Of a stretch of DNA of 64,000 nucleotides, positions 11,566-46,647 are shown in pieces. Both the position numbers and the translations under genes were made by a program. The stretch's first letter is position 1. The number at the start of each line of letters is the position of its first letter. The stretch is from Octopus vulgaris (lineage: Eukaryota): contig OX597835.1 in assembly GCA_951406725.2 (NCBI GenBank), positions 13,516,001-13,580,000 on the forward strand. The letters run 5' to 3'. Under the pieces are notes generated by a model. That model was not told the DNA's origin and ran no database searches. It saw nothing but the letters and a program-made list of their open reading frames with translations.

Positions 11566-11864
11566 CATTTTGTTTTTCGCAAAAATGAAAATGTCTGAAT
11601 TAGCATGTTGTTTAAATGTCGTTATTTTTCCTATGTTTCTGTGTATTTCAAAAAAAAAAAACAAAAACTTGTTCACTTGTCGCTTCATTGAAAGTGCCAT
11701 ATGTCTGTCTAGCGCCTCTCCACCCCTCCACCTCCACTTCAGAAGAAGAAGAAGAAGCAGAAGAAGAAGGAAGAAGAGGAGGAGTAGAAGCCATGTTAAA
11801 ACATTATTGTCATTGCCATTATCACCATCAACCTAATATCACTGCCATTGTTACCGCCATCATC

Positions 11865-11882
11865 AATACCATCACCACCACC

Positions 11883-11916
<34 letters not shown>

Positions 11917-13265
11917 TCACTACTACCACCATTGTCATCGTCATCACTATCACCACCACCACCACTATGATCATCATCATTACCACCACCACTACCACCA
12001 CCACCACAACCATCATCATCATCACTACTACCACCATTGTCATCGTCATCACTATCACCACCACCACCACTATGATCATCATCATTACCACCACCACTAC
12101 CACCACAACCATCATCATCATCATCACTACTACTACCATTGTCATCGTCATCACTATTACCACCACCACTACCACCACCACCACAACCATCATCATCATC
12201 ACTACTACCACCATTGTCATCGTCATCACTATCACCACCACCACCACTATGATCATCATCATTACCACCACCACCACAACCATCATCATCATCACTACTA
12301 CCACCATTGCCATCGTCATCACTATCACCACCACCACTATGATCATCATCATTACCACCACCACCACCACCACTACCACCACCACCACAACCATCATCAT
12401 CATCACTACTACCACCATTGTCATCGTCATCACTATCACCACCACCACCACTATGATCATCATCATTACCACCACCACCACAACCATCATCATCATCACT
12501 ACTACCACCATTGCCATCGTCATCACTATCACCACCACCACTATGATCATCATCATTACCACCACCACCACCACCACAACCATCATCATCATCACTACTA
12601 CCACCATTGTCATCGTCATCACTATCACCACCACCACCACTATGATCATCATCATTACCACCACCACTACCACCACAACCATCATCATCATCATCACTAC
12701 TACCACCATTGTCATTGTCATCACTATCACCACCACCACTATGATCATCATCATTACCACCACCACCACCACCACTACCACCACCACCACAACCATCATC
12801 ATCATCACTACTACCACCATTGTCATCGTCATCACTATCACCACCACCACCACTATGATCATCATCATTACCACCACCACTACCACCACGACCATCATCA
12901 TCATCATCACTACTACCACCATTGTCATCGTCATCACTATCACCACCACCACCACTATGATCATCATCATTACCACCACCACTACCACCACGACCATCAT
13001 CATCATCATCACTACTACCACCATTGTCATCGTCATCACTATCACCACCACCACCACTATGATCATCATCATTACCACCACCACTACCACCACAACCATC
13101 ATCATCATCATCACTACTACCACCATTGTCATCGTCATCACTATCACCACCACCACTATGATCGTCATCATTACCACCACCACCACCATCATCACCACAA
13201 CCACCACAATCATCATCATCACCACCAACACCACCACCAACATCATCACTATCATCATCACCACC
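11865..13265. repeat. Compound trinucleotide (CAC/CAT/TAC) array with ~90-bp higher-order unit
   Basis: The anchor attgtcatcgtcatcactatcacc recurs about 15 times. Confidence 0.92.
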
Positions 13266-20992: not shown

Positions 20993-21182
20993 TATATGTA
21001 TATATGTATGTATGTGTATGTATGTATGTGTATGTATGTATGTGTATATATGTATGTGTATATATGTATGTGTATATATGTATGTATGTATATGTATGTA
21101 TGTATATGTATGTATGTATATATATATGTATGTATATATATATGTATGTATGTATATATGTATGTATGTATATATATGTATG

Positions 21183-36735: not shown

Positions 36736-36784
36736 TATGTTGGTTTATATTGTGTATATTATGTATACTGTTTATATTAGTCAG

Positions 36785-37253
36785 ACTGATCTCCTCAACT
36801 TCATTCTTACTTTCACTACGTTTTGGCTGTTGTATGCTCCAGCCATCTTCAGGTGTCTTGTGTTGAAACCGGTTGTTGTATCAGAAGCTTTAATCTAACC
36901 CTTTATTTAATCCATGGAGTTATGTTGTTCTTGTTCAGCTCTCAGCATTTTGTGACATTTTTTACTTCAGTGGATTTTTTATACTTTTAATAATCTTACT
37001 ACCTTGCCTTGGGTTGAACTCAGAATCTCTAGGTGACTGCACTGCATTAACCAATGCTTTTGTCTTCTACTCTATGCCCGGGCATAGAGTAGGAGAGTGA
37101 AATGAGAACAGTGTGTTCCCATGGATCAAATAAAGGCTTAGGTTCCAAAATTCTGGTACAACAACCAAAGGTCAACACAAGACATCTAAAGATGGCTGGA
37201 GCTTATGACGGTCAAAATGTAAGGAAAGCTAAAATCAAGATGAGGTCACCAGT
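36785..37253. mobile_element. Older relative of the fold-back hammerhead/tRNA-core element
   Basis: Arms ~36785-36935 and ~37103-37253 are diverged inverted copies. The minus strand at 36814-36855 reads cac CTGAAGA t ggctg-gagcatacaa-cagcc AAAA cg TA gtg. A tRNA-like remnant lies on the minus strand at ~37003-37057 (gcattggttaatgc...gagttcaaccc). Confidence 0.65.
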
Positions 37254-38811
37254 GCGGCTAATTGAAGCAGTATTCTTTTATACTTTTACTTGTTTCAGCC
37301 ATTTGACTGTGGCCATACTGGAGCGCACTGCCTTTAGTCGGGCAAATCGACCCCAGCACTTATTATTTGTAAGCCTAGTACTTATTTTATCAATTGATTT
37401 TGCCGAACTGCTAAGTCTTCACCACCACCACTGTCTCTATGGTAACTATTACTTTCACCCCAACATGAGCAATAGTAGAAGTATCAATGAATAGTGAGAG
37501 AGGGGGTCAGAGTGTGACATACTGACACACAGAAATTAGTTTTCGCATTTATTATATATACACACACACACACACACACATACATACAGCAGGCTTCTTT
37601 CAGTTTCTGTCTACCAAATCCATTCACAAGGCTATCGTCAGCCCAAGGCTACAGTAGAAGACATTTGCCCAAGGTGTGACACAGTGGGACTGAACCCAGA
37701 ACCATGTGGTTAGGAAACAAGCTTCTTACCACACACTGCCTCGCCTAACTGTACTTTTGTGTGTGTGTGTGTGTGTGTGTGTATATAAATATATTTCTAT
37801 TTTGTTCACATCTGAAGTGTGAGAAAAAAAAATCTGTTTTGCTTGCAGTAATGTTTTTATCCCTAATAAATGGGAACAACAGGATGTAAATTTTTTTTTT
37901 AGAAAACCAGAAGCGCAACACAAACGCTTTCGCAAATGAATGCACAGTATATGGCCAGCTGTCACATGATGCTCCTGAAGGGCGGAGGCACCGGGGGGAG
38001 GGGGGGCTTTTTTTTTTTTTTTTTTTTCCCCTTATCCATGTAATTAATATATAAATACATTTTAAACCATTGGATTGAGCTACTTTATCATTTCATGATT
38101 TGTTGTTTAAAAAGAGAAAAAACTACATTTTTATATTGCTATAAAGAAAATATTTAAAGTTTGCAGATGCTGAAATTCCCAAATTCATTGCATAAAAAAT
38201 CCAAAAACCGTTTCTTTTCCTACGTTCTTTCTTTTTTTTTTTCCCCCATTTTTTCTCTCTTTTTCTTTGTAATATGGAAGACGTGAGAAAAAGTCGGAAG
38301 AGAGGTTTTAAAGATTCCGCACTTAAATGAAGACTTGCTGCTAATTCTTGCAAGTTTTTAGCATTTCGTAAATCAACATACGATAAAATCAAAAATAGTT
38401 TTATTATATTCTCTCTCTCACTGTCTCTTTAAAAATGTTTTTGTATATGTATGTATGTATGTATGTATGTTTGTATACATGTATGTATGTATATATGATT
38501 GTATGTTTGTAGGTATGTTTGTATGTATGTGTATGTATGTATATATGTGTTCGTATATATGTTTGTAGGTATGTTTGTATGTATGTGTATGTATATATGG
38601 GTTCTTTAACAAGAACAGCATTGACAGGGACTTTGAAGTCTTGGCCAAGTGCGCCATCATTGGACAAACCAATGATGGATTAGTTGGCTGAATCTTCAAA
38701 GTCACTGTCAAGAAGAACAATTTGTACTCTACAAAAGTACAGAGTAATCCTTCAGATTAATGTAAAATTGTTTTGCATTATAACTTCACATAAAAACAAA
38801 CATTAATTAAT

Positions 38812-44340: not shown

Positions 44341-45821
44341 TGTATTTGTGTGTGTGTATGATATTGTTCAGAATCATTTGTTGTCAAAGAAAATTGACAA
44401 TTTTAATTAACTGGCAGAAGAGAGAGAGAGAAATAAAAAGAGAAAAAGACAAGGAGAAAGAAAGAAAGAAAGGAAAAAAAAAAAGCAAAGGCAAGTAATT
44501 TCAGTCTGTAGAATTTTCCAGTTAATGCATGACATTCCGTGTTAATGGGATCTGGGTTTTGGTAAAGCAAGGCTTGTAGTTAGTCCCAGCAACCTATTCA
44601 CGAATGGGGGCGTGTACAGGTGGCTCTGTCAACACACACAAATGAATGGTTACTAAAGGAAACCACCTCCAGCACCAACAACAACAGCAATAACGACAAT
44701 AACGCTACCACCCATAGCAATAAACACATTTCTGTTTTTTTTTTTTTTTTTTGATTGAATGTAACTAAAATTAGGTCTTTTGGTGGTGGTGGTCGTGGTC
44801 GTGGCAGCGGCAGCTGTTGTTGCTGTTCTGTAATACATCTGTGTCTTGTTTCATTTCTTTGGTCCATTGATCAAGTAGAATTTCTATTCTATACAAAAAG
44901 AAAAATAAATAAATAAATAAATACAATAAAATAAAATACAATAAAATAAAATAAGCCAACTTGTGTCAGAATAAAAAGTTTCCATCTCAGCTATCACTGA
45001 CCTCACATTTTCACTCCGCTGTAAAGACAGTTGTTTTCTTGTTGAAACCAAAATGCCCAGCTCTGTAACACAAATTAATTTTTCACATTGCTTCAAGGTT
45101 GTTTATTGTATTATATTTTTTTTTTTATGTTTAGTCATTCGTTTGTTATTTTTTAATCCAACCCTGTTGTTCTCAACTGTTTTTTTTTTTTTTTGTCTGT
45201 GGACCTTTTTGATTCTTATTCTGTTCGACTGGGTCCCCATGGCCAATTGAAGTTTTAAAAAAATCCCATTATATTTCTATAATTAAATGTTATTGTGAAT
45301 TCTTAGACCCTTTAGCATTCAGGTTCTTCTGTCAAGTAAAATGCTTATTTATTTAAATTGGTTTGAAATAATCATGCATTATGTCACCGCTTATCATCAT
45401 CATCATCACCATTTAATGTTCATTGTCCACGCCGGCATGGGTTTGACAATTTGACCAAGGCTGGAAAGCTGCGCCAGACTCCAGTCTGATTTAGCATGGT
45501 TTTCTACAGCTGGATGCCCTTCTTAATACCAACCTATCCAAGAGTGTGACGAGTGCTTTTACATGTCACTGGCACAGGGGCCATTTGCGTGACACCAGTA
45601 ACTGCCACGACTACAATTTCACTTGGCTTCATGGCTCTTCTGCTCAAGCATGACATAATGCCAAAGGTTAAATTTTAAAATATATTTTTAAAATGACATT
45701 GTATGGCAGGTGTGAGAAGCAGGATCTGGCCAGTTTGAACATGAAACATGTGGAATATTTAGGATTGATATGACTAGTTTAAACGCTAAACGGTTAAAAA
45801 AATTATTTTTAAGAGATATTG

Positions 45822-46181
45822 ACGGATATTTGTCCTCATCTTGTTTGTTGTTAACACAACATTTTGGCTGATATACCCTCCAGCTTTCTTCAGGTGTCTT
45901 GGGGAAATTTCAAACCTGGGTTCTCATTCCCAAGGTATTTTTCGATATTATTATTATTATTGTTCGGGCATATGGCATAGTGGTTAAGAGCACGGACTAC
46001 GAGCCCCAAGATTCCGAGTTCGATTCCAAGTAGTGACCTGAACAATAATAATGATATCGAAAAATACCTTAAGAAATGAGAACTCAGGTTCGAAATTTCC
46101 CCAAGACACCTGAAGAAGGCTGGAGGGTATATCAGCCGAAACGTTGTATTAACAACAAACAAGATGAGGACAAATATTCGT
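45822..46181. mobile_element. Fold-back element: ~143-bp inverted arms with hammerhead-like motifs around a 74-nt tRNA-like core
   Basis: 45822-45965 is the near reverse complement of 46040-46181. The core 45966-46039 has an A-box TGGCATAGTGG and a B-box GAGTTCGATTCC. Confidence 0.8.
46105..46150 (+). ncRNA. Minimal type I hammerhead ribozyme-like motif
   Basis: gacac CTGAAGA a ggctg-gagggtatat-cagcc GAAA cg TT gtatt: conserved boxes, 5-bp stem II and palindromic ACGT stem III. Stem I reads gacac/gtgtt in the opposite arm. Confidence 0.65.
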
Positions 46182-46647
46182 GAAATGTAAATAATGCTTA
46201 AAAAGTTGTTCAAACATTTTATGTATTGTAAAAATATAACAATTTTATTGCACATAATTTTTAACAACAAAATCTTATGCGAACCCCAAAAGGTCATATG
46301 GACCCTGGTTGAGAAGCACTGATCTAATTCATACTAACCTGGGTTAGATAATTCTCAACCACATGGTTCCAGTTTCAATCTCACTGTGTGGCACCTTAGG
46401 CAAATGTCTTCTACGATAGCTTGTGGATTTGGTAGGCAGAAACTGAAAGAAGCTCATCGTGTCTGTGTGTGGGGGTAGTTGTCCTTCCTTTCTCCCAATC
46501 ACTGCTTGACAACCAGTGTTGGTGTGTTTATGTCCCCGTAACTCAGCAGTTATATATATATAATTTATATTATTATATGATTGAATGCCACACATCCTCT
46601 TCCAAATAAGTGTATATATATATATATACATATATATACACAAACAC

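Follow-up and report, generated by a model that had tools for sequence, protein, structure and literature searches.

In a 64,000-nucleotide stretch of Octopus vulgaris DNA (GCA_951406725.2, contig OX597835.1, positions 13,516,001 to 13,580,000, forward strand; hereafter the window), a tRNA-like core lies between two inverted arms, each of which carries a hammerhead-like motif. This layout raises the question of whether the unit is an element of its own, copied from a small self-cleaved RNA as had been proposed in a sequence-only reading, or part of a larger element, and of how its RNA is made.

The inverted arms were confirmed: 45819–45961 and 46041–46184 are reverse-complementary, and the whole arm-core-arm stretch has a predicted folding energy of −234.6 kcal/mol. 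The 74-nt core with A and B boxes was likewise found as described. The limits first given, 45822–46181, did not hold; the element is wider, extending over approximately 45803–46196, and its left tail is damaged. The following features were assigned:

45794–45800, plus strand: possible decayed target-site duplication (TSD), left copy, with a 7-nt match to 46198–46204 (read by eye)
45803–45818, minus strand: damaged remnant of the optional tail (~30 nt) of a Penelope-like element (PLE), a family tail match with an internal deletion and an approximate boundary; distal reverse-transcription start and left end of the insertion
45819–45961, minus strand: inverted 5′-truncated half, comprising the PLE ORF start and part of the (AAT)n spacer without the tRNA head; 131 of 144 alignment columns identical to the right arm
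45853–45898, minus strand: left minimal hammerhead, predicted dead from the arm alignment (G12>A, C15.2>T, G10.1>A)
45966–46039, plus strand: tRNA-derived head of the terminal repeat (pLTR), with A box at 45973–45983 and B box at 46017–46027
46040–46075, plus strand: (AAT)n spacer, very variable in length among copies, and short leader upstream of the start codon
46076–46196, plus strand: first codons of the PLE ORF by translation, with ATG at 46076 and, in the window copy, a stop at 46181
46105–46150, plus strand: minimal type I hammerhead of the right arm, with an intact core and one mismatch in stem I
46196, plus strand: end of the ORF-start segment at the proximal, tail-less reverse-transcription start site
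46217–46220, plus strand: first TTTT of the flank, the predicted stop for Pol III

A TSD scan of the window copy found nothing above chance. Fragments that look like common octopus SINEs flank the element at 45390–45660 and 46350–46550. Short related, inverted-looking ends were seen by eye on both sides of it, at 45160–45240 and 46290–46325, and possibly belong to a host MITE into which the repeats inserted. Elsewhere in the window, positions 11730–12420 are occupied by a long tandem array with a 9-bp period and strong GC skew.

The head was scored with an A/B box profile built from 21 tRNA genes of the O. vulgaris genome, and the joint A and B box score of the window head was reached by none of 100 shuffles. 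No tRNA was found in the window copy by ARAGORN at default settings or by Rfam; at a lowered threshold, ARAGORN made 20 tRNA calls in 108 head copies. The family-majority head was nearest to tRNA-Arg(TCT), which it matched at 51 of 79 columns; the comparison covered 27 distinct tRNA genes from a few isotypes of the genome, so that this parent tRNA is provisional.

The right hammerhead consists of CUGAAGA (46110–46116), an extra A, stem II (46118–46122 with 46133–46137), and GAAA-CG-UU, with the cut predicted after 46145. Its core boxes were intact as first read, and a C-A mismatch in stem I at 46148, where the family has G, had been overlooked. The changes in the left core were also correctly read, two of them being transitions (G12>A and C15.2>T) and the third, G10.1>A, lying in stem II, and it was verified that no TTTT occurs between the head and the predicted cut. 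The window copy did not match the Rfam hammerhead models. The same motif with varying stems was found in 24 of 80 PLE loci from other organisms, and its core is intact in the family majority; judged by these sequences, it is a genuine minimal hammerhead of the PLE type. Many pair types occur in the stems of 17 hammerheads from the other PLE loci; the finder itself demanded pairing at the first 3–4 stem positions, and stem II positions 5 and 6, which it did not demand, were paired in 12 and 11 of the 17, respectively. Between the hammerhead stems of the two O. vulgaris families described below, no covariation was found.

Relation to a coding Penelope-like element

The genome (2.8 Gb, 227 contigs) was searched with the full element, and 7108 candidates were returned, of which all 40 that were scored matched most of the arm-core-arm stretch; the layout therefore recurs beyond this locus. 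A 32-nt hammerhead motif had 4697 exact occurrences (reversed control, 0). Because the exact motif was present in 33 of 148 sampled arms, the genome total can be roughly estimated at 21,000 arms. The arms differ from the majority by approximately 5%, or 3.6% when CpG sites are excluded. From the first 100 motif places listed, 90 were taken and two overlapping duplicates dropped, leaving 88 loci that comprised single units, head-to-head pairs, and ORF-bearing copies, most copies being without the ORF. A chance SINE inside a MITE was ruled out by the recurrence and by the layout across the 88 loci, a MITE or DNA transposon by the asymmetric ends, variable junctions, and TSDs of 11–18 bp, and a non-LTR retrozyme, with its tandem head-to-tail hammerheads, by the predominance of dispersed head-to-head pairs or single units. 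Two copies (L004 and L005) lying 18 kb apart in opposite orientation share the same flanks and represent a local segmental duplication.

The link to a coding element was seen at both ends of the unit. In locus L056, the end of an ORF with an RT domain (PF00078, RVT_1; E = 3e-11) and an endonuclease-like end lies directly upstream of the head. With the L056 RT as genome query, 7332 candidates were obtained and 150 scored; of the 20 RT loci fetched, 13 (one being the query locus) reach the ORF end, and 12 of these have the head directly adjoining it. In a second set of loci it followed the ORF end in 24 of 29 (24 of the 28 reaching it). On the other side, the arm translation from the ATG at 46076 reads through the hammerhead and shows similarity to the N-terminal residues of an 847-aa PLE protein of different origin (10 of 25 residues identical, pairwise E = 2e-5). 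Arm plus tail are continuous with the ORF in L066, as they are in the majority of 28 further loci. Protein searches gave 2980 relatives, some with a precomputed GIY-YIG domain (PF01541); the C-terminal part of the ORF product aligns with relatives over 97–99% of the query, some of them carrying PF01541, and a local Pfam scan of the family's own copies gave no GIY-YIG match.

The head and arm are the pLTR of an autonomous RT/GIY-YIG PLE itself, and the arm is the first ~50 codons of this PLE. The repeat unit is ordered as head, (AAT)n, ORF start with hammerhead, and optional tail. The family has the traits of EN+ PLEs, namely an ORF with RT followed by GIY-YIG, a pLTR holding the ORF start and hammerhead, an inverted truncated copy, a one-sided tail, and a TSD. 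With tRNA-derived SINEs it shares a 5′-terminal head that is related to tRNA and bears A and B boxes; it is not a separate non-coding family sharing only its 3′ end with a partner, as the whole unit including the head is part of the coding element. The absence of a Cys-rich linker is a criterion for the Penelope/Poseidon type, and the family was provisionally assigned to this type by domain order and the missing linker. The original reading is thus upheld in that the retroelement is of Penelope type, its head is tRNA-like with Pol III boxes, and its hammerhead is of the minimal PLE kind. A non-autonomous element of its own, descended from a fixed arm-core-arm master, was not supported, since the unit is the pLTR of an autonomous PLE and the junction differs in every copy. 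The location of ORF start and hammerhead in the pLTR has already been published for PLEs (PMC3846280, PMC11167929).

An older sister family (family 2) is represented in the window by a head-to-head copy at 36754–37283, with a palindrome at the junction near 37080. It has a different tRNA-like head, a longer ORF start, and the same hammerhead stem II with another loop; its order is head, ATG, hammerhead, and tail, placed after a similar ORF end. This copy as query returned 497 candidates. In a search of the genome for PLE families, 68 of 70 loci belonged to the family of the fold-back (family 1), and two were distant copies with 7 TTTT (T4) runs in 3497 nt. The A/B box score stood out in 7 of 9 loci of family 1 and in all 3 scorable loci of the 7 given for family 2, and the boxes are kept in both families (bodies ~70–79% alike) though the remaining head sequence differs. 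Among PLEs of other organisms, the score stood out at 1 of 21 hammerhead sites, and even there no B box could be recognised; a tRNA head was therefore rejected as a trait of PLEs in general.

Three further observations were made on related loci. In L328, L336, L338, L339, and L346, the early ORF (~400–480 nt into the body) jumps back to arm sequence at a similar place, which suggests a recurrent internally deleted non-autonomous form. L439 and L440 hold a distant RT-related element with open frames of 341–533 aa and ~25% identity to the family 1 protein, possibly of another PLE clade. Within the (AAT)n spacer of L047 lie LINE pieces (1002–1484 and 1700–2285) that we take to be R4/Dong-like; this LINE gave 37,614 candidates, many of them near-identical, with open frames of up to 1235 aa, and probably has been active recently, to judge from the copies.

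Formation of the paired insertions

Each fold-back is one PLE insertion of two 5′-truncated pLTR copies placed head to head and is made anew per insertion. The length of the inverted half varies between a few bases and more than 1 kb. Pair statistics were based on 145 loci after five duplicates had been dropped. Of 87 head-to-head pairs in this set, 79 had the ~30-nt tail on exactly one side, 8 on neither, and none on both. A TSD of at least 11 bp was present in 58 of the 87 pairs versus 2 of 259 shuffled pairs (range 11–18 bp, mode 12). Among the 30 top copies, which include one duplicated locus counted twice, 17 have the tail on the half without a head and 12 on the half with one; 1 copy has no tail. 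Because the tail sits on the head-less half in these 17, a simple cDNA hairpin is excluded as the source; two priming events can place it there, and a hairpin copy of one cDNA cannot. Ongoing gene conversion between the arms was ruled out by a within-pair distance of 8.3%, against 9.0% between pairs.

A subfamily marker at hammerhead position 7 agreed between the arms in 59 of 70 pairs and disagreed in 11. Because these 11 exceed the background A/T change rate of 0.5% per site, the marker suggests that two RNA templates took part in some insertion events; a linked site disagreed as expected in only 4 of the 11 discordant pairs. The agreement in most pairs, together with the short palindromes present at junctions, could also be explained if the inverted arm came from self-priming of the cDNA or from an antisense template instead of two separate primings, and an antisense template has been proposed for rotifer PLEs (PMC3846280). 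Such an origin is judged unlikely in view of the tails on head-less halves and the discordant pairs, even though few of the latter are backed by the linked site. Two separate primings agree with work on an anole PLE, whose enzyme cuts and extends both strands in vitro and in which two internal sites define the tail (PMC11167929); the paired insertions fit this two-strand, two-site priming. The inverted-arm layout had been thought undescribed. Inverted copies with one-sided tails are in fact known in PLEs (PMC8557442, PMC8969392), inverted 5′-truncated ones included (PMC8557442, PMC3846280), as are opposite-strand hammerhead pairs 100–700 bp apart in Schistosoma (PMC4209133), and the fold-back itself is ordinary for PLEs.

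The 3′ ends of the arms bear on the role of the ribozyme. In the 145 loci they cluster at arm-reference positions 135–149 and 165–170, i.e., ~55 and ~80 nt (range 50–80 nt) beyond the cut site at ~88, and few end near the cut. Because copies extend this far past the ribozyme cut, self-cleavage is not what ends the RNA template, and the hammerhead is unneeded for that. Uncut RNA is used by a PLE in vitro, where ribozyme cleavage is likewise unneeded (PMC11167929). A self-cleaved RNA of ~180 nt is thereby contradicted as the mobile form. The proposal that either strand could be processed is likewise unsupported, since in a transcript of both arms the ribozyme would be locked within a hairpin of ~143 bp and the head has only one orientation. 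The idea of an independent fold-back SINE, mobilised in trans from a ~180-nt Pol III RNA ended by hammerhead cleavage, does build on real features (the head, the ribozyme core, the TTTT-free interval, and the many copies without the ORF), but the end mapping speaks directly against it, the junction varies, and the unit is contiguous with the coding element. Moreover, an intact core was found in only 57 of 148 arms of pairs, as expected for decaying copies, and both cores were intact in 12 of 74 pairs. An independent SINE is therefore regarded as highly improbable.

Proposed transcription from the tRNA-derived head

The explanation that we favor, with moderate confidence, is a Penelope/Poseidon-type insertion of two pLTR copies whose template RNA was likely made by Pol III from the tRNA-derived head. 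The head, situated between the stop codon and the next start codon, would promote Pol III transcription from a few bases before it, and without a T-run the polymerase would read head, ORF, and next repeat into the flank. The element protein, for which either the uncapped Pol III RNA or a Pol II read-through transcript may be the messenger, would make a staggered cut, and both DNA ends would prime reverse transcription inside uncut RNA, one at the distal site (with tail) and the other at the proximal site (without). Joining of the two cDNAs at their far ends would give the inverted arms. Priming in the 5′-most repeat or on lone-repeat transcripts would give SINE-like halves of ~250 nt running off at the head, which would carry their own promoter and could be amplified without the ORF.

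In its full form, the proposal is that an autonomous coding PLE lineage has switched to Pol III: the captured head would be an internal promoter regenerated by every copy, the 2.3-kb ORF would have been purged of T-run terminators, the same unit would shed thousands of SINE-like units, internal priming would remove the need for a defined template 3′ end, and the one-tail pairs would reflect, in vivo, an enzyme dimer that primes on each DNA strand at a different RNA site. The chances of this full form are evenly balanced. Judged by the sequence evidence that follows, the short units and the full coding element alike are likely transcribed by Pol III.

Two lines of indirect evidence point to Pol III. 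In the 88 motif-picked loci, 52 halves reach the head start, of which 38 end within ~8 nt upstream, 1 ends ~20 nt upstream, and 13 enter the coding body. When 144 halves were classified by end point, the head start accounted for 42, the spacer for 36, the arm and the inside of the head for 27 each, and the body for 12 (182–907 nt in). A small hairpin spans the head start and short palindromes occur there, so that enzyme stalling or snap-back could be an alternative source of this 5′ peak. Copies that are full-length and begin at the head are very scarce: among 28 loci with the 5′ part of the ORF, 3 reach the upstream head, of which 1 starts at the head, 1 starts inside it, and 1 continues into a tandem unit.

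The second line is the lack of T-runs. The majority body of 2347 nt (depth 26–46) contains no T4 on the sense strand, with 4.1 expected from base shuffling (P = 0.011), 4.3 from back-translation of the 1764-nt frame (P = 0.004), and 2.6 from codon shuffling (P = 0.04). Individual copies hold 69 scattered T4 runs in 157 kb, or 0.44 per kb versus 0.54 per kb for decay from a T4-free ancestor, which is what such decay gives. As controls, 29 of the 80 outside PLE loci had a frame of at least 400 aa, some being near-duplicates; these ORFs held 302 T4 runs in 56,427 nt, none was at zero, and observed/expected ratios had a median of 1.64 and a minimum of 0.42. The Octopus family was also the lowest in T3 and interrupted T runs. 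Because A4 runs in the body are at expectation, the deficit is strand- and base-specific; G4 runs number 0 versus 2.8 expected, and G4 is also absent in 10 of the 29 controls. In the R4/Dong-like LINE of this genome, which is just as rich in A, 95 T4 runs were counted in 18,178 nt (5.2 per kb), in copies of one family that are not independent. The sister family has no T4 in 1895 nt made up of pieces that overlap one another, mostly at the endonuclease end, the test being limited to this length because a search with its RT region returned only family 1 copies (~72%).

Three RNA-seq runs from one study showed no place with many molecule starts or ends. Head, arm, and body were covered equally on both strands, and 74–79% of the reads continued into unlike sequence, indicating that they are mostly parts of other transcripts. 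Two further points speak against Pol III: the head no longer scores as tRNA in Rfam, and in other PLEs the pLTR is reported to hold TATA/Inr-like motifs of the Pol II kind, with introns sometimes kept (PMC3846280).

These data have to be weighed against two accounts in which the coding element does not depend on Pol III. Pol III might make only short head-arm-tail RNAs, as a SINE-like by-product of the pLTR, with the coding element transcribed by Pol II and its lack of T-runs due to chance or codon bias. Short transcripts would suffice for the 5′ peak and the excess of short units (roughly 21,000 arms against 12 of 144 halves reaching the body), coding retroelements as a rule use Pol II (PMC10886601), and the codon-shuffling P value is only 0.04. 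Chance or bias sits poorly, however, with the absence of any T4-free ORF among the 29 controls, in all of which T3 and interrupted T runs are also commoner than in the Octopus family, with a sister family that also has no T4, and with A4 runs at expectation; we regard the account as rather unlikely. Still less probable, in our judgment, is that the head is a captured and silent tRNA or SINE remnant whose structure stops the reverse transcriptase, the RNA coming from Pol II read-through. The hairpin and snap-back palindromes at the head start, the embedding of most reads in other transcripts, and the tandem read-through copies L336 and L162 would all be in keeping with it. A silent head would not be expected to keep its A and B boxes in two families whose head sequence has otherwise diverged, and it leaves T-run avoidance over 2.3 kb unexplained. 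Transcription by Pol III from the head thus remains the preferred reading.

Comparison with known systems

Coding retroelements are taken as Pol II-dependent, and Pol III is associated with short non-coding passengers (PMC10886601). If the full proposal is true, the family would be a natural protein-coding unit on a tRNA promoter, the boundary between a SINE and its partner would be blurred as both come from one sequence, and tandem insertion would no longer be needed to rebuild the PLE promoter. The thousands of paired insertions would provide in vivo statistics on PLE integration (one tail per event, a stagger of ~12 bp, and occasional mixed templates), a process whose later mechanistic steps have been called unvalidated (PMC11167929). 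No title or abstract found in the literature describes a pLTR with a tRNA head, a SINE mobilised by a PLE, or transcription of a PLE by Pol III; this search was outside Repbase, Dfam, SINEBase, most subscription papers, and supplements, so a database entry may exist.

Like tRNA-derived SINEs (SINE2; octopus OK, OR1, and OR2, and Schistosoma Sm-alpha), the Octopus unit has a tRNA head with a putative internal promoter, small size, very high copy number, and TSDs. It differs from SINE2 in that its 3′ part is a PLE ORF start and not a LINE 3′ end, in having no simple-repeat 3′ tail, and in being integral to a coding element; the comparison covers SINE2 without the OK sequence. Sm-alpha is a tRNA-derived SINE, and the octopus SINEs OK, OR1, and OR2 were reportedly described by Ohshima and Okada in 1994. 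OR1 and OR2 have been cited as CORE-SINEs (PMC4758252, PMC4824008). In the passages covered of these two papers and of PMC10886601, the word Penelope does not appear.

The TRIMp3 elements Cassandra, Helenus, and Ajax carry in their terminal repeat a Pol III promoter derived from a small RNA, as is proposed for the Octopus family, but they are non-coding LTR elements of 0.3–1.3 kb, whereas the Octopus repeat belongs to a coding PLE of 2.6 kb (PMC10886601). Non-LTR retrozymes resemble the short units in being non-coding PLE derivatives with type I hammerheads; they form head-to-tail tandem arrays, whereas the Octopus units are dispersed head-to-head pairs with a tRNA head (bioRxiv 10.64898/2026.07.22.740005; PMC4209133). 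The minimal PLE hammerheads of Cervera and De la Pena (2014, PMC4209133) share the extra base between 9 and 10.1, the G10.1-C11.1 pair, the palindromic CG at 15.2/16.2, and the short stem I, and those described in the portion covered have no tRNA head.

The closest relatives are EN+ PLEs such as anole PAc (PMC11167929) and Adineta Pen2a (PMC3846280; overview in PMC8557442), which have in common with the Octopus family a single ORF with RT and C-terminal GIY-YIG, the first codons of which lie in the pLTR, a pLTR hammerhead, an inverted 5′-truncated copy, a one-sided tail of 30–40 nt, a short TSD, and two internal priming sites. The TSD is ~12 bp in the Octopus family versus 8–10 bp in the Adineta examples, and in place of the TATA/Inr-like motifs of Pen2a there is a tRNA-derived head with A and B boxes (PMC3846280). 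Compared with EN+ PLEs, the Octopus copies stop sharply at the head and the sense strand is free of T4; the unusual part is the tRNA-headed pLTR together with a T-run-free ORF and these sharp stops.
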